Source: Vampirovibrionales bacterium (GTDB taxonomy: Bacteria > Cyanobacteriota > Vampirovibrionia > Vampirovibrionales > Vampirovibrionaceae). From it: DNA of 64,000 nucleotides. The stretch is taken from positions 70,833 through 134,832 of the forward strand of contig JBDIVN010000009.1 in assembly GCA_039794365.1 (NCBI GenBank). Direction: 5' to 3'. The notes below the pieces were generated by a model, which made no database searches, was not told the origin of the DNA, and saw only the letters and a program-made list of their open reading frames with translations. The translations under genes were made by a program, and so were the position numbers. Positions 20,037-32,782 of this stretch are shown here, piece after piece. Numbering within the stretch: the stretch's first letter is position 1; the number at the start of each line of letters is the position of its first letter.

Positions 20037-23000
20037 TCAGGGGGTCAGCCGCGTTCCCACCTGCAACGGCTTTGCCGTGGTCTTCTGGCTCAGGGATTCG
20101 ATATTGAACCGCAGGGGAATGTTGTTGCCGCTGATGGTGTTCTGGACGCTGAAATTGGTGCTGTCAAAGATGGTGATGCTGGTTTCGGACATATCGGCGA
20201 CGTACACCTTCTCGCCGTCGCGGCTGACGGAAATGCCGTAGGGGGTCGGTCCGACCGCCACCGTCCGGCTTACACTGCCGGTGTCCGTATCGATGATGGT
20301 CATGGTGCCGTCAAAAGTGTTCAGGACGTAAAGGGCCTTGCCGTTGGGATTGACGGCGAGCGCCTGCGGGTTGTTTCCGACCGTGATTTCCCCGCTGATC
20401 CTGCCGGTTCCGGCATCGATAACGGCAATGGTGTTGCTGCCTGAGTTGGCGACGTAGATCGTCCGGCCATCCGGGCTGATGTCAATGCCCGAAGGCTGGC
20501 TCAGGTTGCCTTCAATAGTCCGAACCACCCGGTTGTTCCGGGTGTCAATGACGGAGATGCTGTTGGCCGCACTGTTGGCAACATACAGGTTTTCACCGTC
20601 CGGGCTGAGGGCGAGACCTTCGGGATGCTCCCCAACGGGGATGTCGGTCATCACTTCGAGGTTGGAAGTGCTGATGACGGAAACGGTGTTGCTGCCGGAA
20701 TTGGCGACGTAGGCGGTTTTCATGGCCCGGTTCACGATAATGGCGTTGGGGTTGCTGCCGACCGGAATGATCTTGATAATCTGGTCGCCGAGAGGAACGA
20801 TGACGTAGACCTTGTCCGTTGAGGCGTTGGCCACGTAGTCCAGCTGGCCGAGGTCCTTGTCCTCGTATGTGAAGGAGCCGCTGCCAAAAGCCACGGTCGC
20901 GTTGAGCATGTCCTCGGTCCTTACCGGCGAGGCGGTCCCTGAACCGTCATCCGAAGCGGTCGAATCGGTGCTGATAACCACCGTTACCGGCTGGGTCAGC
21001 AGCGACGGATCGAGGGAGGCGATGGCGTCCACGACCTGCAGCGAGGGGCCGGGATCGAAAGTTGTGCCGCCGCTGCTGCTGGAAGACGGTGGTGGCGGGG
21101 CAAAGGTCGTGCCTCCGTTGAAGATGACCAGTCCCGGTGGTCCGCCGACGACGCTCAGGTCGTTGGTGGGCATGACGGTGCCGTCAATATTCACGGAAAC
21201 GCCGTTGACGGCGCCGCCCGCGCTGACAAACAGGTCGCCGCCCACGATGTTGACATCCAGCGGATCAGTATCGGTGCCGATGGTGCCCGATGCGGTGAGA
21301 TAGGAGTCGGCTCCGGCGGTGAAGTTGTTGGCCGCGCCGTTGCCGTCGAGAATGCTGCCGTTTTCGGCGCTGAGTTCAAACCCGGCGGTGCCCACGTCGA
21401 ACGTGCCGACGTAACCGCCGTCCGTCAGGTTGATGTAGGCGGCGGCGTTGTTGGTTTTCACGCTGATCATGCCCGTGCCGCCGATCTGCACGTCAAGATC
21501 GCCGAGGCCGGGGTTGCCAATCTGTCCCGTTCCCAGGCCGCCAGCCCCATCAAACGTGATGTCGCGGTTGTTGGCCAGGATGATGTTCGGTATGGAATCG
21601 TCGGTGGGGTCGGCATCGGTGATGGTGCCCGCCGTGCGCAGGTGAAGCGAGGCGTCCACGGCGGTGAGATCGATGGCGTCAATGCTCATGTCCCCGGTGG
21701 TGGCGTTGTTGCCGATGGTCAGGTTGCCGGCGGAAAGGTTGTTGAGTTCGGCGTTGGTCAGGCTCAGCAGCCCCGCGCCGCCGCCCAGGCCGATGGAGCG
21801 GCTGGCGGTGGATGCGGCCAGGGTGACATCACCGTTGCCCGCATCAATCGTCCCGCCGGAGAGATCCATATTGTCGGCGATGACGCTGACCGTGCCGTTG
21901 ATGGAGATAAGATTGCCGCCCGCCATGAGGTTCACGGCCCCGTTGCCCGGCGTGGTGAGGGTCACGGCGGTGGCGCCGTTGACGCTGCCGCCGTTGATGT
22001 TGATGGTGCCGTTGACGCCGGTGGTGTTCAGATTTACCGTGTTGCCGGTGACAGCCCCGGTGACGTCGATATCGCCGCCCGCCGTCAGGTCGTAGGCCAT
22101 CACGGCGCTGTTGCCGGCGCCCAGCGTCACGCCGTTGAGTTCGTCGATATAGACGTTATTGCCGCTGATGTCCAGGGTGGCGGCATCCGTGTCGAACCGG
22201 TTCCCGGCGGAGCCGATATCCGTGGCCGCCGTGACGGTCACGAGGCCGCCGCCCACCCGTCCGGCGTTCTGGGTGACTGTTCCCGCGCCGGTGGCCTCCA
22301 GGGTGACGGAGGTAGCGCCGGTGACGTTGCCGTTCAGGGTCAGGCTGCCGTTGGCGGCGGTGGTGTCCAGGCTGATGACGTCGCCGCTGATATCGCCGGT
22401 GGTGGTAAAGCTGCCGTTGGCAACGACATCCAGGATGCCGCCGTTCATATCCGACGCGCCGATGGCAATGTCATCCGTCTCGTTGATGTAGGCATCGCCG
22501 CCGTTGGCGTTGGCCGTCAGGTTGACGGTGTTGGTGTTGAACCGCTGGATTCCGGTTCCCGCGAAACCGGTGCCGAGGTTGAAGTTCAAATCCGTGGCGT
22601 TGACGATGTTGGCCGCTCCCTGGTGGATGTTGGCGCCGTTGCCGGTGGCCGAGAGGTTCACCGTGTTGCCGGTGACGTTGCCGTTCAGGTTGATGTGGCT
22701 GCCATCCGTCAGGGTGGACACGTCAACCTGGTCGCCCGCCGAGATGTCGGCATTGACGAAGATTTCGGCGTTGGCGCCCATCGTGCCGATGTCAAGATCA
22801 CCGGTTCCGTTGGTGACGTTGATGTCGCCGTTGAGGGTAATGGTGCTGCCCGTGCCCGTGGTGTTGATGATGGCCAGGCTGGTCGCCGTGTGGGTTCCGC
22901 CGCCTGCCGTGATGGTTGAATTGTCGCCGCTGGTGGTCATGTCGAACCGGTTGGCGCTGATGTCGCCGCTCATCGTGATGTCGGAATCATCCCGGTTGGT

Positions 23001-26000
23001 TCTCAGCCAGGTGTTGCCGGTGGTGGTGACATTGCCGGTGACAGAGACGGCGCTGTTGACCTGCTGGGTTTCGACGCTCAGCGTGGCGGCGGAAACATTA
23101 CCGGTCAGAGAGATAGCCGAATCCGCCTGCAGGGTTTCGATATCCAGCGTGTTGGCAATGGTATAGCCGCCGCCGGCGTCCTGCATCGTGATGCCGCTGT
23201 TCGTGCCCGCGGTGTTGAATATGGCGTTGGCGGCGGTGATGTCGCCGGTCTGGGAGATGCCGCTGTCCGTCGCGCCCGTGGTGGTCATGGACAAATCGCC
23301 GGTAAGGGTGATGTCGCCGTTGGTGGTGAGGGTGGACGTGTCGCCCAGGGCGGCCAGCGAAGCGTCCGCGGCGTCAATCGTGCCGTTCTGGTTAATGCTG
23401 CCGAGATTGGCGATGATGTCGATGTTGCCGCCCGCGCTCAGGTTGCCCAGTTCGAGGTCGGTCAGGGTATCCGTCAGGGTGAAATCGCCATTCATCGTGG
23501 TGGCGTTGATAAGGGAAGCGTTGAAGACGCCGGAGAGGTTGACCTGGTCGTCCACGTTGAAAATAATGTTGGAGCCTGTCAGATTGGCACCCGTGCCGAC
23601 GACGTCGAACATGTTGGTTGTGTTGATGCTGATGATGCCGGTGCCGCCTGCGCCGGTGCCGGCCTGCTCATCCAGGGTGCCGTTGTTTCCGGGGCCGGAG
23701 GCGTCGTTGACGATGCGGATCACGCCCCCGCCTTCGGCCATGATGGTAACGTCGGTCAGATCCAGATCGCTGGCATCATAGTTGATGGTGACGGACCCGT
23801 TATCGCCGCCCGCGGCGCGAACCGTTCCGGCGCTGGCAAAATCCCCGTCGATCAGGACCAGTCCGCCGCCACCGGCGTTGATGGTATCACCGGGATTGAT
23901 GGCGGGGTCAGGGGTGCCGCCGTTGTCGTCAAAGGTCAGGTTCTGCCCCACACCCGTTCCGGTCGCCTCGACAAGCGTTCCCGCACGGGAGATGGTGATG
24001 CTGTTGGCGGTGAGGCTGATGTTTTGGGCCTGATGGGTCCGGTTGGCCAGCAGGTCCAGCACGATGTCGCTGTTGGCGGCGGTTGCGTCCAGGTTGCCGC
24101 CAGCCGTCACGTTGCCGCCGTACATGTTGATATTGCTGTTGGCTCCGGTGGTGCTGAAGGTGATGTCATTGGCATTGGTCGCCCCGTTGATGGTGATGGC
24201 GCCGAAGGTGGCACCGGTGGTGGCGATGTTGAGATCCCCGGTCAGGTTGGCGCCGCTGATGGCAATGCTGCTCAGGTCATTGGTTGCGTCAAGGGTTGCG
24301 TTGACGCCACTGAGAACGCCCGTGGTGACATCGCCGTTCACGCCTGTGGTGTCGATGTCAATATCGTTGGTGGCGGTAATGGCGCCTGTGGAGATCCGGC
24401 TTTCATCGCCGGTGGTGGTCATGATGGCGTTGTCGGCGGCGATGGTTCCGCCGAGGAGCATGTCACTGTCGAAGCCGGTGGTGCTGGCGGTGAAGTTGTC
24501 GGTGGCGGTGATGTTTCCGGCGACGTTCATGGTGCCCAGGTTTGCGGCATTGGTGGTCAGGTTGATGACGTTGCCGCTCATGCCGCCGTTGGAGAAATTG
24601 ATGGTGCCGCCATTGAGGGTGATGTTGTTGGCGCCCGCCGTGATAACGTCTCCGGCCACGGTGGAGGTGATGGCACCGGCATTTCGCAGGTCAAGGTGGT
24701 AATCGAAGCCGCCGGCGGAAGTATCCATGGCGTTGACGATTTCCAGATCCCCGCCCATCGCGGTATCGCCGATAACCAGCGTATTCGCCGTGATGCGATC
24801 CAGTTCCACGTTCTCGATATCCAACACCAGGGCGGAATCGTTGTCGCCGACATTGTTCAGATCAATTTTCTTGGCTGTGGTGGCGGTGATGGTGACGGTG
24901 CCCGCCCCGGCATTGACCGTGCTTCCCGGCTCCAGATCGAACTGGGAGACGTTGAACATGATGTTGCCGCCGTTGGAATTTATGGCCGAGTTCTCCTGCA
25001 TGGAGAACCGGCCCGTGTTGTTGGCGTCCGTGTCGGCAAAAATGCCGATATCGCCGCCCGCCGTTGAATAGGTGGAACCCGCGCCGCCGTCCTGGCCGAG
25101 GAAGATGTTGTTCTGCGCCCGCAGGGTGATGCCGTTGGCGCCGCTCATGGCCATGCCGTCGTTGTCGAGATTGATGCTGCCGTTGCCCCCGTTGGCTTCG
25201 ATCCAGAGGGTGTCTCCCGCCGTAATGGCTGCCAGTCCGGCCTCGTCAGTAATGTCACCACCCGCCAGCAGTTGCAGCACGCCTCCTGCCGAAACGGTGG
25301 TTACGAGGTTCACGCCGTCAATGTCTGTGACATAGGCGTCCAGCCCGGCGTTGACTTGCAGGTTGTTTGCGTCGATGGTCACCGGCAGCGGAGCCGAACC
25401 AATGTTTGACTGAGTAGCGATGAGATTCAGCGTATCGGCAGTAATCAGGCCGCTGTTGTGGATAATGTCACTGTCCAGCCCGGCGGTGGTGATGGAGGCA
25501 CCCTGCCGGCTCTCTGACTGGTGAAATTGCCGGCGTAGGTGATGCTGCTCTGGTTGCCTGCCGTGGAAATAGTGGGGGAGTCCACGTTGGTGGTGATGTC
25601 TGCGGTGATGGAGATGTCGCTGTCAATGCCCGCCGTGGAGATGGTAAAGCCTTCACCGCCGCCGTCCACGCCGCCGCCGCGATCCACCTGGTCACCCATG
25701 GTATAGGGATTCACACTGCTGATGGTGATGTTGCTGCCGTCACCCGCCGTGGTAATTTCCGTGGCGTCCGTATAGGCGATGTTGCCGTCGGTGATTGTAA
25801 TGTTGGCATTGTTTCCGTTCGTGACCAGGCGCAGATCATCGCCCGCGGTAATGGTTGCCCCATTGAGATCGATGTCACTGTCCGCATTGTTCGTGATTGC
25901 GCGGATATCCCTGCTGGCAGTGACGGTGCCCGTAATGGAAATGTCGTTGTCAACGCCACTGGTAGTAAAAAAGACATTCGCACTTCCCGAACTCGCTGAA

Positions 26001-29000
26001 CCGCTCAGGGTGATACTGCCATCCAGGGCGGTAATATCCACCTGACCGGTTATCGCCGTCAGGGAACCGCCGATGGAGATATTCCCGTCGACCGTATCAA
26101 TGTCCATGGAGGTGCCAAACGCGTTGGATGTCAGGTTGCCGTCAAGGGTAATATCGCTGGTGGCGCCACCGGTACTGATGGTGATGTTGTCCGTAATGTT
26201 GGCGCTGGACGTGTTGGTGAAGGTAATACCGCTGTTGGCTCCGGTGGTTGATACGGTGAGATCGGCGTCGTTGATGTTCAGGTCGCCGGTAATGGTGATG
26301 GGGCTGTCGTTTTGTGCGGTGGAGAGGGTGCCGGTGCCGTTGAGGGAGTTGGCGGTGATGCTGTCCACGGTGATGCCGCTGAAGGTTCCGGCGGTAGAAA
26401 TGTTCAGGGTAGACCCGTTGGCGGTGATGGTTCCGGCGCTGTGGGTAATGGCGCTGTCGGTCAGCCCGGCGGTGGTGATGGTGACATTTTGCCCGGCCTT
26501 TTGGCTGGTGAAATTGCCGGCGTAGGTGATGCTGCTCTGGTTGCCTGCCGTGGAAATAGTGGGGGAATTGATGTTGGTGGTGATGTCGGCGGTGATGGAA
26601 ATGTCGCTGTCCGCGCCCGCCGTGGAAATGGTAAAGCCTTCACCGCCGCCGTCCACGCCGCCGCCGCGATCCACCTGGTCGCCGAAAATCAGCGGATTGG
26701 CGGTACTGATGGTAATATTGCTGCCCAACCCGTCCGTTGTGATGAGAATGGCATCGGTGACGGTGATGGCCGAGCCGGTAATGCTGATGCCGGCATTATC
26801 GCCGAAGGTTCGCAGTCTCAGATCATCGCCCAGGGTCACATCCGCCGTGGCGGTAAAGATGATGTCGCTGTTGTTGCCGTTGGTGGTCAGGCTCAGATCG
26901 CGGTCTGAAACAACCGTTCCCGTGACGGTGATGTCGTTGTCAATTCCGTTGGTAGTGAAGAACAGGTTTCCGAGGTCGGGGTTGGTTACCGTGCCCGTAA
27001 TATCGATGCGGCCGTCCTGGGTTTCAAACTGCGTGAAGTTTGCACTGCTGCCCGTGAAGTTTCCATCCACGAAGATATGACTGTTCGGGCCGTCGGTGCT
27101 GGTCAGCGAGAGGGCCGTAATACCGCTGGCCGTGTAATCCGAGGTATTGGCAAAGGTAATGTCGCTGTCGGCGCCTGCTGTATTGATTGCGTAGTTTCGG
27201 CCCACATCAACCCTACCGGCAAGCGTAATCCCGCTATTATCACCGGTTGTCGTCAAACTCAGGTCACGGGCGGGAGCAATATCGCTGCCCGCCGCCAGGG
27301 TAATGCCGCTGTTCAGGCCGGTGGTTGAGACGGTGAAATCCTGATCCCCAATATTAACCGTGCCGGTAATGGTGATAGCGCTGTTATCCTGTCCGGTGGA
27401 GAGGGTACCGGTCCCGTTGAGGGAACTGGCGGTGATACTGTCCACGGTGATGCCGCTGAAGGTTCCGGCGGTAGAAATGTTCAAGGTGGCTCCGTTGACG
27501 CTGATGGTTCCGGCGCTGTGGGTAATGGCGCTGTCGGTCAGCCCGGCGGTGGTGATGGTGACATTTTGCCCGGCTTTCTGGCTGGTGAAATTGCCGGCGT
27601 AGGTGATGCTGCTCTGGTTGCCCGTCGTGGAGATGGTGGGGGAATTGATGTTGGTGGTGATGTCGGCGGTGATGGAGATGTCGCTGTCTACGCCCGCCGT
27701 GGAAATGGTAAAGCCTTCACCGCCGCCGTCCACGCCGCCGCCGCGATCCACCTGGTCGCCGAAAATCAGCGGATTGGCGGTACTGATGGTAATATTGCTG
27801 CCCAACCCGTCCGTTGTGATGAGAATGGCATCGGTGACGGTGATGGCTGAGTCGGTAATGCTGATGCCGGCATTATCGCCGAAGGTTCGCAGTCTCAGAT
27901 CATCGCCCAGGGTCACGTCTGCTGCGGCGGTAAAGATGATATCGCTGTCGTTAGCGTTGGTGGTCAGGTTCAGATCGCGGGCGGAGAAGACTGTCCCATT
28001 GATGGTGATGTCATTATCCACCCCGTTGGTGGTCATCAGCATGTTGCCGCCGGGAGCGTCGGTTCGAACGGTGCCGTTGACGGTGATGTTTCCATCCTGG
28101 GTGGTGAGATCCATTGCCGTGCCGAAACGATCCGCCTGAAGGAATCCGTCGATGATTATGTTGCTGCCTGCGCCGCTGGTGTCCCAGTCCACCAGGTTGT
28201 CGATGTGGGCAAACGCCCCGGCATTGAAGAGGATGCTGCTGTTATCTCCGGCGGTATTGACCACGAAGCTGCTGGGAGTGCTGACGGTGCCCGTAAAGGT
28301 AATATTGCTGTTATCGGCAACCGTGGTGATGGGATTCAGCGTGGTGCCCACGGTCAGGTCGTCGAGGGTGATGCCGTTGTTGGTTCCGGCGCCGGTGGTC
28401 TGGACCGTCAGGATATCAGCGGTGATGGTGGTGCCGTCCGCCTGGCTGATAAAGCTGTCGTTAAGGCCATTGGTAATAATGGAAGCCGTTCCGGTGACGG
28501 TCAGATCTCCCAGGATATCGATACTACCCCCGGCCAGCAGATCGAATCCGCCGCCGGAGACGGAGGCGGCGAGATCCACGTCGTTGAGTTCGATGATATT
28601 GACGTCACCCGTCCCCGTGTTGGTGACGGTGAGCACCCCGGCGTCCGTCTGGATGGGGTTGGCGACGGTACCCATGTTGCCGGAGAGATCCGTGGTCAGG
28701 TTCACCGTCGGTCCGGTGATCCGTCCGGACTGCCAGGTGATTTCCCCTTCGCGCATGGCGGTCAGGTCAATAATGCCACCGGTGGAGGTGATATTGGCGT
28801 TGAGGTCAATGGACTCCCAATCGGCGGGGTTGATGGTTCCATCGGCATCCGCGTTGGAAAGCAGGGTAATATTGCCGGTGGTGGAAGAAATATCCCCGTT
28901 CACCTTGATCCAGGCCAGGGAATTCAGGGTGATGTCTCCGGCGCCGCCGACGATGCTGCCGGTATCGTCAATCCAGGTCATATTCACGGTCATGGTCTTG

Positions 29001-32000
29001 TCGCCGAGGGTGAGGGTTTGTCCGGCAGCATCAAAACGACCACTGTTGCCGAAGTCCAGGTTGTAGGCTCCGGCCCCGGCGCCGGAAACGTCCAGGTTCC
29101 CGATGATGTCGATATCTCCCCCACCCCGGATCAGGAGGGTATCGGCGGTAATCCGGGCGAGTTCCTGCGAGGAGATGTCGAGAATGCCTGCCGTATCGGC
29201 GTTGTCAACGGCGCCGCCAATCTGTGTCGTTTTGTTGCTGGCGCGGCGCAGCGTCACATTGCCTGTCCCGGCGTTAACGGACTGGTTGATATCCATCTGG
29301 GAGCCTTCCAGGTGGATGTTGCCCCCATTGGATGTCAGCACGTTGTTGATGACGAGGTTGCCGGCATTACTGCCATTATTGTCGGCAATCAGAGTCATGT
29401 TGGGACCATTTGTCGTAATCGTGCCGTTCGTGGTGAAGTTACCGTCGGTGGCCATGCTGATGCCACCGGGGCCGCTGGTGTTGATGGTCGTGTTGGTGTG
29501 GTTGATCTCGATATAGTTTGTGGCGGTCCAGTCGATGGCTCCGGCGTCGATGTCGGCAAATTCGGTAGTCGTGTAGCCAATCTGGATATAGTCGGTCATA
29601 TTGGCCGTAAACGTTCCGCCGCCTAAATTGATGGTGCTGAATGAGTTGCCGCCACCGTTGCCGTCAATGTGGATAGCGTCCCCTGTGGCGGTCCAGCTGC
29701 CGCCGTTGGTAAGGATGCTGGACCCTGCGCCGGTGTCAAACCGTCCGGTCCCGCTGCTGTTGGTATCGGTGACGGAGGTTATTGCGCCGCCGTTGGTATT
29801 GATGGCGCCGTTCATGAAGATGTTGTTGCCGGACATGAACAGGGCACCGCCCCCGGTGTTGACTGTTCCAGTCGAACCGATGGTGAGGTTGCCGTTGCCG
29901 TCGTCGTTGAAATCACCGTCCAGGGTCAGGGTGGCGTTGTTGAGGCTGATGCTGCCGCCAATGACGGCATGACGCCTTGCGTTCAGTGTGGTTCCGTTGC
30001 TGTTGGTGATGCTCCCCGTGCTGGACATAATGATTTCATCGGAGAAATCCGCCTGAATCAGTCCGGCGTTCTGGATAGTTCCGTTGAGAAACAGGTCATC
30101 ACCGCTCATGGTGATGTTGCCACCGCCAGTATCCACAATGCTTCCGTTTGCGATGGTTACATCCGAGACGCCGCTGATTTCGCGGGAGTTCAGGGTGAGT
30201 GAGCCTCCTGAGGTGGTAATGGTGCCGCTGTTGATATTGAGATATTCGCCCTCGATCAGGAGGCTGCCGCCGCCGGTTGCGATGGAGGCGTTAATACCGA
30301 CATCGCCGCTGGCATCCAGGTCTCCGTCGGCATTCAGGATGAGGTTCCGGCCTGCGGTATCCAGCGAGCCGTTGATAAGGATGTTGTTCGCCGACTCCAG
30401 TTTCAGATCATAAACGCCGTTAAGGGTCAGATTCTCGTTGACCGAAACATCGCCCACAGCCCAGTAGGCTCCGATGATCACATCGCCCGCATTCAGCCGG
30501 TCCAGTTCCGCCTTGGAAATATCCATGACCCCCGGTCCATCGGCATTATCCACCGACCCTCCTACCGTGATGTCGTTTCCCCATCCTGTCAGCCAGATGC
30601 TCCTTGCCGGACCGACATCAATTGTGTTGTTAATGTCAATAGCGAGGGAATCAAGATAGACATTGGCGTTGCTGGTGATGGCGCCGTCGATGGTGACGGA
30701 GATGTCGCTGGCCAGATCGAACCATCCGCCGATGTTGGGACCGATGGTAAAGTCCTCGTTGACCGTAATGGCTCCGCTTCCGCCAACGTTGACCGCTCCG
30801 ATGTTGACGGATACGTTCGCCCCGCTGTTAATGCGGTTGATTTCCGCCTGGGAGATGTCGAGCACGGCGGCGGAATCGGCATTATCGACAGAACCGCCGA
30901 CATGGATGTCCTTGCTGGCGAAGGAGCCAATGTAAAGCCACGTCTGCACGCCCGGATCGCCGATATCCACGGTGGCGTTGATGTCGATCTGGGAACCCAT
31001 GAGCTGGATTTCGCCACCGTTGGAAGACACGGTATCGTTGATGGTGAGGGTGCCGCTGTTGTTACCGTCGGCGTCGGCCCAGAGGCGGATGGCGGCGTTG
31101 TTGGTGGTGAGCGGGGCGTTGATGGTGATGTCGTTGTTGGCCTCAAGGGTCAGGGAGACGTTGGCGTTGCCGGTGGCAACGGAGGTATCGAAGGCGCTGT
31201 TGACGATGATGTCGTTCGTGGCCTGGAGCCAGATGTCGCCGAAGCCGTCAAACGAGCCGCCGGCTTGCGGGTCATAAGTCTCCAGGGCACCGCCGTCGGC
31301 AAAGGCAACGTCCACGCAGCCCACACAGTCAGCAGGGTCCGGTGAGCCTCCGGCGTTGTCGATGATGATATCCACCGGGTCAATGAGGATGCGTCCTCTC
31401 TCGTAGCCTTCGGTCGCATGGCCCCGTGCCTGTCCTTGAAAATACACGGTTTCCAGGCCGCTCACCTCGACGAAGCCTGCATTACCCGAAACGGAGCCGC
31501 CGCTGACGTCAATCACCGCGCCGTTGCGGAAGTAGGTGTTCTTGTCGGACCAGATCAGCATCTCGCCCGCATTGCTGTTTTCGCCCGCGCCTTTGACGGA
31601 GGTGTAGCTGTCGCTGGTGAGCGCGGTCCCCTGGGTGGAACTCAGTTCCACGTAGCCGCCGGTGCCGCCCTCGTAGCCTTCGGAGAGAATGTTTCCCGAC
31701 TGGATGAGCCAGTCGGCGTGGAGGGAGACCAGTCCGCCGTCCGGATTGAGTTCTGAACCGCTGGCGTCCAGCGTCCCGCTGTTTTCGACGATGGCCTGCT
31801 GATCGGCGGAATGGCCGCGAAGGCGGATGACGCCGCCTTCCTCCGTGGCGGTGACGGCGCGGATGACGCCGTCGTTGTTGACCACGCGGCTGTAGAGGTT
31901 CTCGGCCAGCTCGGTCTGCAGCTCGATGGTTTTGGATTCAATGGTGCCGCTGTTGGAGATGGCGTGCTGAACCTCGTCCACCTTGGCCAGCAGGGCCTCG

Positions 32001-32782
32001 TCGATGATAACCTCGACAGCCTGGGTGTCCGAGACATTGACCCGGATCTTGTCTCCGGCGGCCAGGTGCACCGTGCCGTCCGGCACGAAGATGTTGCCGC
32101 TGTTCTCCACGGCGGAACCGGCCAGCACCACGTAGCCGCCGGGCATCGCCGAGATGCTCCCCTCGTTGATGACGGCGGCGGGGTTGTCGCCGTTGCGGCT
32201 GAAGGCCCAGTTGCCGCTCAGGTAGTCCTGGTCGGCGATGTTAAGGCTGGAGGCGATGAAACTCCCCGTGTTGATATTGGCGGTGGCGCCGATGTTGATT
32301 CCGGCGTTGTTGGACAGCAGGACCGTTCCGTTGCTGTTGAGGTTCCCCATGATGCTGGAGGGTCCGCCGCCGATGACGCGGTTCAGGATGCTGGCGGTGC
32401 TGTTGAGCAGGAAGAAGTTGACCGTTTCTCCCCCGGCGATGTTGAAGGACTGGTAGTTGACGATGGCCTGGCTGGAACTGGAGTGGACGTTCAGCGTACT
32501 GCCGTCCACCTGGAACGTGACATCCCCCGACACGACCTCCCATCCAGCTGGCAACGCGAGGGCCTGCTGGACCAGCATCAGCAGCACCAGAACGAAGGCC
32601 AGCGCCGACTGCGCTCCCTGCCGGATGACCGTGCGGGCGTTCAGATTACTGAACAGGGCTGACAGATTCGGGAGGAAGTCATCCTCGTGGGTGGTGAACA
32701 GCCGAAATTTGCCGCCGGATAAGGTAAAAATCCGGTGGCAGTTTTTCCTGCCACGAATAATCAAGCTGTCTTGTCTGTCCAT
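20037..32782 (-). CDS. Giant filamentous-haemagglutinin-like (TpsA-type) adhesin with C-terminal YVTN beta-propeller, split by a 1-nt frameshift at about 25506 (4,248 aa if restored)
   Basis: Extended signal peptide ending ..QALA; haemagglutination-activity domain (ILNRVIGG, GNLNSNGTVLLSNNAG); G/T/N/D/I-rich beta-helix repeats; YVAN repeats; one added G joins ORFs 25445..32782 and 20037..25382. Confidence 0.88.
25490..27920 (-). repeat. Three large internal repeats in the adhesin gene
   Basis: GATCCACCTGGTC anchor at 27745, 26668 and 25681 (spacing 1077 and 987 nt); first two copies nearly identical over about 500 nt. Confidence 0.9.

Follow-up and report, generated by a model that had tools for sequence, protein, structure and literature searches.

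In the present study, we analyzed a giant locus on the minus strand of a 64,000-nucleotide (nt) stretch of DNA (hereafter, the window) from a Vampirovibrionales bacterium (GenBank assembly GCA_039794365.1, contig JBDIVN010000009.1, positions 70,833 to 134,832). The locus is probably a lineage-specific two-partner secretion (TPS, type Vb) exoprotein gene, which the sampled population carries as a freshly broken allele: the secretion domain of the TpsA-type product and its C-terminal YVTN beta-propeller lie in different frames, split by a 1-nt deletion. TpsA proteins and the YVTN propeller are themselves known, and what is new here is their union in one TpsA, in which a leader specific to the lineage and a shaft of extreme variability are combined with a YVTN head.

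Coding frames and features of the locus

The minus strand is coding throughout positions 20037-32782, a span of 12,746 nt that is indivisible by 3, and holds two open reading frames (ORFs) that do not share a frame, one at 25445-32782 and one at 20037-25622 (stop to stop). The following features were distinguished, with lengths in amino acids (aa) and models from AlphaFold2 (AF2).

25445-32782, minus strand: ORF1, 2445 aa, from the leader and signal peptide through the TPS domain into the shaft (its initial ~1,950 aa)
32555-32782, minus strand: extended signal peptide (aa 1-76), from an alignment of 11 Vampirovibrionales-type TpsA N-termini
31775-32479, minus strand: TPS secretion domain (aa 102-336) of the EtpA/HMW1 subtype, from PF05860, TIGR01901, and homology to EtpA, HMW1, and HxuA
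25506-27869, minus strand: three long direct repeats in the shaft, ~330-360 aa each, 80-92% identical in DNA
25505-25508, minus strand: frameshift site, GCCGG-CAG versus GCCGGGCAA in two paralogous repeat copies (alignment A1)
20037-25505, minus strand: ORF2 frame, 1822 aa plus stop, comprising the remaining shaft, cap, tether, and propeller
21114-22238, minus strand: shaft-end module ending in the cap (alignment A4), the cap proper being at 21114-21287
20889-21113, minus strand: Pro/Ser-rich tether, ~75 aa, predicted to be disordered from the sequence and the AF2 model
20130-20888, minus strand: YVTN beta-propeller, 24 strands in six four-stranded blades (AF2)
20040-20129, minus strand: C-terminal tail with a conserved lPxRFN segment (alignment A2; low-confidence model)

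The final 19 residues of ORF1 are an out-of-frame read-through past the deletion, and ORF2 has no signal peptide of its own; a protein read through the break would have 2,426 + 1,822 = 4,248 aa. An earlier reading of this DNA by a model, made without database searches (the sequence-only reading), had described a single ~4,250-aa adhesin at 20037-32782. The coding extent was borne out, and the length agrees with ours provided that the frame is read through, while the single ORF gave way to two ORFs split by the 1-nt deletion. No continuous ORF joins the TPS domain to its cargo in this genome (G000). Since the TPS part and the propeller part are in different frames, no single protein can comprise both the fiber and the propeller here, and the annotation of one giant adhesin at this split gene would be wrong.

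Evidence for the deletion

The deletion is very likely to be genuine in the sampled population. One G is absent from a GGG run at 25506-25507 (GGG to GG), the reference being the two paralogous repeat copies upstream, which read GCC GGG CAA (A-G-Q), in contrast to GCCGG-CAG in the third copy. Restoring the base yields ...NFTSQRAG-QGASITTAGLDSDIIHNSG, which parallels ...NFTSQKAG-QNVTITTAGLTDSAITHSAG of the other copies, and a 1-nt gap against both of them restores AGQGASITTAG, parallel to AGQNVTITTAG. The same deletion is present in Logan contigs, which are built per public run and independently of the metagenome-assembled genome; the runs concerned, X1-X4, all come from one hot-spring sample, with no independent biological replication. 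A 2,862-nt contig from X1 (depth 8) spans 25000-25547 and a 191-nt contig from X4 (depth 3) spans 25389-25579, each with zero differences, and both run from unique sequence (25389) over the deletion into the repeat, which suggests that the deletion is probably real DNA. The longest contigs in these two runs reach 74-98 kb, which indicates that their reads are accurate. The sole contig with an extra C continues into TDSAITHSAG at a loose end and was, thus, assigned to another repeat copy. Since ORF2 is open over 1,822 codons with no other lesion, the break appears to be recent. Short contigs on 20040-26000 from runs X5 (landfill) and X6 (sludge) differ by at most two letters each, and, thus, the same species or strain occurs beyond the hot-spring sample.

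It appears unlikely that the gene is intact, encoding one 4,248-aa TpsA, with the frameshift arising as an artifact of sequencing, assembly, or consensus calling at the edge of a long repeat. The position of the break exactly at the start of a 300-nt repeat family, the frequent misassembly of giant repetitive genes, the two frame breaks within highly repetitive arrays of the ortholog in genome G010, and the otherwise lesion-free 12.7 kb of the locus all speak for an artifact. However, the X1 and X4 contigs bridge the unique sequence and the repeat without a difference, the only contig with the extra C belongs to a different repeat copy, and the break falls at a repeat edge because the ungapped extension of the repeat finder halts at an indel. 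A regulatory break, by which phase variation or programmed -1 ribosomal frameshifting would supply the full-length protein from some cells or ribosomes, is much less probable still. Adhesin genes are frequently phase-variable, AGG immediately follows the site, and a -1 shift at the GGC-AGG junction would yield the paralog-like AGQGAS; nevertheless, slipped-strand phase variation would require a run far longer than GG/GGG, a -1 slip would leave the P-site tRNA-Gly unable to re-pair, and no ortholog is broken at an equivalent position. Programmed frameshifting was rejected because the site has no X XXY YYZ slippery heptamer.

Leader and TPS domain

In the N-terminus of ORF1, a Sec signal peptide precedes the TPS domain. 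This signal peptide has an extension in the form of a conserved ~56-aa leader, IIRxGxNxHRYIxFxxGK..FTThEkDF...LFGxLN, which precedes a hydrophobic core (aa 59-72) and a predicted cleavage site between ALA and LP. Ten other TpsA N-termini share this leader (P0123-P0127, P0130, P0132, P0138, and those of genomes G007 and G001), and the leader-bearing set, which is drawn from Vampirovibrionales genomes and close database relatives, includes members with an adjacent TpsB. The two other TPS genes of G000 (contigs C17 and C15) do not have it. A Pfam scan revealed no match to ESPR (PF13018) at the N-terminus; judged by its sequence, the leader is a different conserved motif that is unrelated to ESPR.

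The TPS domain matches PF05860 at aa 102-336 (E=2.8e-21; 77 bits, cut-off 33.5) and TIGR01901 (50 bits, cut-off 29). Over residues 52-478, the protein shows homology to solved adhesins, namely EtpA (8VBA, E=6e-39), HMW1 (2ODL, E=5e-25), and HxuA, and on this basis it belongs to the HMW1-type TPS subfamily. The NPNG motif is a hallmark of TpsA proteins and not an absolute requirement. In its place, the protein has NNAG (aa 158-161, 32300-32311), with NNAGI (aa 158-162) aligning with NPNGV of EtpA, and the conserved NPNG(I) motif is, thus, absent. Pro is retained at this motif in ~79 of the 91 matched TpsA sequences in a rough regular-expression survey of other TpsA hits, and also in the two other TPS genes of G000. 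The extended signal peptide, the TPS domain, and the substitution of NNAG for NPNG had all been recognized in the sequence-only reading, and each is supported by these results.

The C-terminal propeller

The presence of a YVTN propeller, which had also been proposed earlier, is supported by a match to the YVTN repeat family TIGR02276 (E=1e-47), with additional matches to PF21783 and PF10282. The tandem ~42-aa repeats fold as a propeller in the AF2 model, with a pLDDT of 85-97 across most of the domain, and Foldseek ranks 1L0Q, an S-layer propeller of Methanosarcina, as the best match, with 38% identity and an rmsd of 1.4 A across 242 columns (E=4.5e-26). The earlier count of five blades plus a partial one was not sustained by the AlphaFold model of the C-terminus, which has six complete blades; the proteins of genomes G010, G007, and G004 also have six.

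Related proteins

At least three further genera of this Vampirovibrionales family have proteins that unite a leader, TPS domain, and C-terminal YVTN propeller, and this conservation of the architecture in related genera argues for a real functional design. The related proteins range from 1,700 to ~8,600 aa in length. Vampirovibrionales bacterium OFTM381 (G007) and Vampirovibrio sp. MAG.114 (G004), both of the same family as G000, carry intact genes for proteins of 1,716 and 1,700 aa, respectively, the latter genome with a second copy of 2,015 aa. In these short versions, two Laminin_G_3 domains occupy the place of the repeat shaft. The database proteins P0126 (from Vampirovibrio sp. MAG.114), P0242 (from Vampirovibrionales bacterium OFTM381), and P0243 are 1,700-1,783 aa long with two Laminin_G_3 domains each, and P0126 and P0242 are intact ORFs. 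At the other extreme, the ~8,600-aa gene of G010 opens with this leader and a TPS domain, and its C-terminal module is 49% identical to that of the present protein. The G010 gene (L042:12150 to L017:18020 on G010:C5, ~25.9 kb) contains more than 20 tandem 342-nt repeats of 90-100% identity with two frame breaks inside. One of the breaks is a 1-nt insertion, and the other resembles the junction of two different repeat segments and could be a misassembly or a recombination.

In word-based searches of a collection of 5.8 billion proteins with the N-terminus as the query, a TPS domain with a YVTN-type C-terminal tail was found in Vampirovibrio-like clusters only; the precomputed Pfam annotation flags a propeller family in P0124 and P0126 only, and the C-termini of P0123 and P0125 look YVTN-type by eye, although Pfam detects none there. 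With a full-length short ortholog as the query, the combination of TPS, LamG, and YVTN was found in P0126, P0242, and P0243 only. The C-terminal 423 aa retrieved only their own ORF2 and YVTN proteins from Bacteroidota and Methanosarcina that have several propellers and no TPS domain, in a ranking that was dominated by multi-propeller proteins and is uninformative on architecture. A scan of genome contigs with a single peptide pattern yielded, beyond G007 and G004, mostly unrelated small YVTN propellers. A 5,514-aa frame in G149, from another family of the class, was rejected as an ortholog because, despite its propellers, no TPS domain is present within its first 2,746 aa. The unrelated clusters P0275 and P0285 combine ESPR, a TPS domain, the caspase-like PF00656, and WD40-like repeats, and represent a different TPS-propeller fusion.

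Candidate TpsB partner and flanking genes

The gene had been described as an orphan, which holds locally and not for the genome as a whole. No ShlB-family gene was found on the window's contig, while a search for ShlB/FhaC across G000 (3.49 Mb, 23 contigs) detected two TpsB genes with POTRA_2 and ShlB domains on contig C2, besides BamA on C3. A TpsB of the cognate type (POTRA_2 plus ShlB) is, therefore, encoded elsewhere in the genome, and its pairing with the present TpsA is a candidate one. Three TPS-domain genes are present in G000 (contigs C9, C15, and C17), none of which adjoins a TpsB. In G007, the gene is divergent from that of PEP carboxylase, in synteny with the G000 locus, and also has no adjoining TpsB; accordingly, the local orphan state is not peculiar to G000. 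The TpsB at C2:66224-67999 is 38-39% identical to the TpsBs adjoining TpsA paralogs in G010 and G001, which makes it the best candidate for a shared trans-acting transporter; the other TpsB on C2 is 28-31% identical to the same proteins.

That other TpsB (C2:102576-104609, L001) is divergent from a gene for a 1,475-aa Gly/Ala/Asn-rich, secreted-looking protein (G000:C2:97622-102049, minus strand). A genome-wide TPS search gave no match there, and the product may be a non-canonical substrate of this TpsB.

The genes flanking the locus are unrelated housekeeping genes, with an FKBP isomerase and an M90 peptidase downstream and a Zn-ribbon protein and a divergent PEP carboxylase upstream. Promoter- or terminator-like sites were looked for in the 3' flank, and none were seen.

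Shaft, cap, and tether

The shaft comprises ~3,400 aa, from approximately aa 480 to 3,890 of the read-through protein, 76% of which are G, T, N, S, D, A, and I; apart from Asp, charged residues are nearly absent. It matched none of the Pfam repeat families, and the homology to the EtpA beta-helix covers aa 52-478 only. The AF2 model of the last 385 aa of the shaft is all-beta with short strands at a pLDDT of 56, too poor for a fold to be assigned; a fold search with this low-confidence model returned nothing significant, the weak matches all being beta-solenoids. Thus, the composition fits the beta-helix-type repeats that had been proposed for the shaft, whereas neither the model nor the fold search secured them.

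The shaft ends in a module of ~380 aa that is 40-54% identical to same-genome paralogs with other tails; hits to the first ~100 residues of the query were obtained in several giant ORFs, and the final ~100 aa of the shaft-end/cap model have a pLDDT of 70-86. The cap carries the motif GTIGTDxDPLxVxxxGGxLxVxAGG..NGVSVNIxGxV.P.N...PPGxVIFNG. Three contig-end fragments of giant genes (G000:C20:1-2853, plus strand; C20:17118-18641, minus strand; and C4:253531-256437, minus strand) have the same shaft end and cap, followed by acidic tails, which in two of the three become Lys-rich and end in a conserved ...NTLK and in the third end in an Asp/Gly/Cys-rich sequence. The occurrence of different tails behind one cap suggests interchangeable C-terminal modules. 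In the present protein, the cap is followed by the tether, the modeled part of which (model residues 1-61) has a pLDDT below 35; the PPPPSSSSS linker noticed in the sequence-only reading was found within it, at 21072-21098.

TpsA proteins of the HMW1 and EtpA types are N-glycosylated by GT41 enzymes. The shaft appears by eye to be rich in N-x-S/T sequons, and a match to the GT41 glycosyltransferase family lies in a 774-aa frame at G000:C4:234493-234975 (L045), unlinked to the TpsA genes.

Proposed function and alternatives

We propose that the extended ~56-aa leader would direct Sec export and that the TPS domain would then engage the POTRA domains of a trans-encoded TpsB, for which C2:66224-67999 is the best candidate, before translocation. 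The shaft would fold into a long rigid fiber, of ~65-90 nm if beta-helical (20-24 residues and 0.48 nm per turn), and the propeller would be displayed outside the cell on the flexible ~75-aa tether, most likely as a ligand-binding, adhesive head with a putative role in adhesion or prey binding. The propeller is the conserved cargo of the ortholog group, and its conservation among related proteins with wholly different shafts fits functional cargo. In G000, translation from the TPS end stops at 2,445 aa, such that at best a headless, shortened fiber would be exported, while the deletion would leave the propeller part (ORF2) without an export signal. The earlier interpretation of the locus as a propeller-tipped filament, therefore, stands in its TpsA identity and its C-terminal YVTN propeller, and fails in that such a filament could not be made here unless the frame were corrected.

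Several points weigh against this reading. The support for the deletion comes from contigs of two runs of one sample, in which a minority intact allele or a systematic error may be hidden, and the landfill and sludge populations, at 2-3x depth, have no cover of the frameshift site. A search for RNA runs returned none. The loss of the Pro of NPNG (NNAG) may make even the secretion of ORF1 poor. The beta-helix of the shaft is plausible as a tentative model, and the location of the propeller beyond the outer membrane is inferred, as are its position at a distal tip and its binding of a prey or host receptor, which the sequence-only reading had put forward. Furthermore, the six-bladed propeller model fits onto six of the seven blades of 1L0Q at an rmsd of 1.4 A, and its ring may, thus, be open or completed in another manner.

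The C-terminal end of a TpsA protein is often kept at or below the outer membrane, as in FHA, CdiA, and HMW1: HMW1 is anchored by this end in the periplasm, and the C-terminal half of CdiA stays periplasmic, as does the prodomain of FHA. Since this end is not necessarily distal or extracellular, a serious rival is that the propeller acts as a periplasmic stopper or anchor, prefolded and blocked at the TpsB pore, which would tether the fiber with the Pro/Ser-rich segment passing through the pore. The analogy with C-terminal retention in these three proteins, the periplasmic location of the YVTN-type propeller YncE of E. coli, the disordered tether of at least 75 aa between the cap and propeller, and the short charged tails that paralogs carry after the same cap, as with interchangeable retention modules, are all in line with an anchor. 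We still regard it as improbable, because the most similar propellers belong to surface proteins outside the cell (1L0Q of the Methanosarcina S-layer, and proteins of Bacteroidota labeled as gliding motility-associated-like by JGI) and because the propeller is the most conserved part across differing shafts, whether LamG domains or repeats. An enzymatic role, in which the fiber delivers a lactonase-, SGL-, or arylesterase-type enzyme instead of a binding module, is very unlikely. The Pfam families Lactonase (PF10282), SGL (PF08450), and Arylesterase (PF01731) match the propeller, as do NCBIfam 6-phosphogluconolactonase models far under threshold; however, the matches to enzyme families are far under the equivalog cut-offs and reflect the shared repeat, and TIGR02276 and the non-enzymatic 1L0Q are by far the best matches.

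Beyond the adhesive head proposed above, a more speculative and rather doubtful extension is that Vampirovibrionales keep a dedicated TpsA fiber for the capture of prey or substrate, with a leader class of its own, a propeller lectin head on a tether, a shaft of freely evolving length (LamG domains or repeats), and one shared trans-acting TpsB. The frameshift would then be one state of an on/off or length turnover under prey-driven selection.

Comparison with known systems

Vampirovibrionales are related to the epibiotic algal predator Vampirovibrio, and we know of nothing on the attachment of non-photosynthetic cyanobacterial relatives to prey or surfaces. A conserved TpsA that joins a propeller head to an undescribed leader and to a shaft varying five-fold in length is, accordingly, a concrete candidate for such attachment. 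Full-text literature searches found no paper on a propeller-bearing TpsA or on Vampirovibrionia adhesins, and the genome paper on V. chlorellavorus describes attachment via type IV pili, OmpA, and VWA proteins, with TPS unmentioned (PMC4451040).

The closest known systems include P0126, P0242, P0243, and P0124, which are annotated only as filamentous hemagglutinin N-terminal domain-containing proteins and have the same leader and TPS domain, at 43-49% identity for the proteins compared. P0126 and P0242 share the six-repeat propeller and the C-terminal lPxRFN, whereas P0124 has fewer YVTN-type blades at its end.

The tails that appear interchangeable after the PPGxVIFNG cap recall the modular tails of CdiA and FhaB, and the cap resembles the pre-toxin demarcation of CdiA; however, the TPS subtype of CdiA differs from that of this protein. 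A reading as a contact-dependent inhibition (CDI) toxin was rejected because no PT-VENN, toxin, or immunity signature was detected with Pfam at E<=0.01. The gene downstream, where CdiA systems have an immunity gene, is a convergent FKBP isomerase gene.

Among the characterized systems, EtpA of enterotoxigenic E. coli and HMW1 of Haemophilus influenzae are homologous to the N-terminal ~430 aa of this protein and are, similarly, large repeat-rich passengers with presumed export through a POTRA_2 plus ShlB transporter. In contrast to both, the present locus has no adjoining tpsB or glycosyltransferase gene, has a lineage-specific leader and NNAG, and is frameshifted; its shaft is 2-3 times longer, and its product ends in a YVTN propeller, which EtpA and HMW1 do not have. 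The propeller itself shares its repeat signature with the S-layer propeller 1L0Q of Methanosarcina mazei, an archaeal S-layer protein with seven blades and, after them, a PKD domain, whereas six blades here form the end of a bacterial type Vb passenger.

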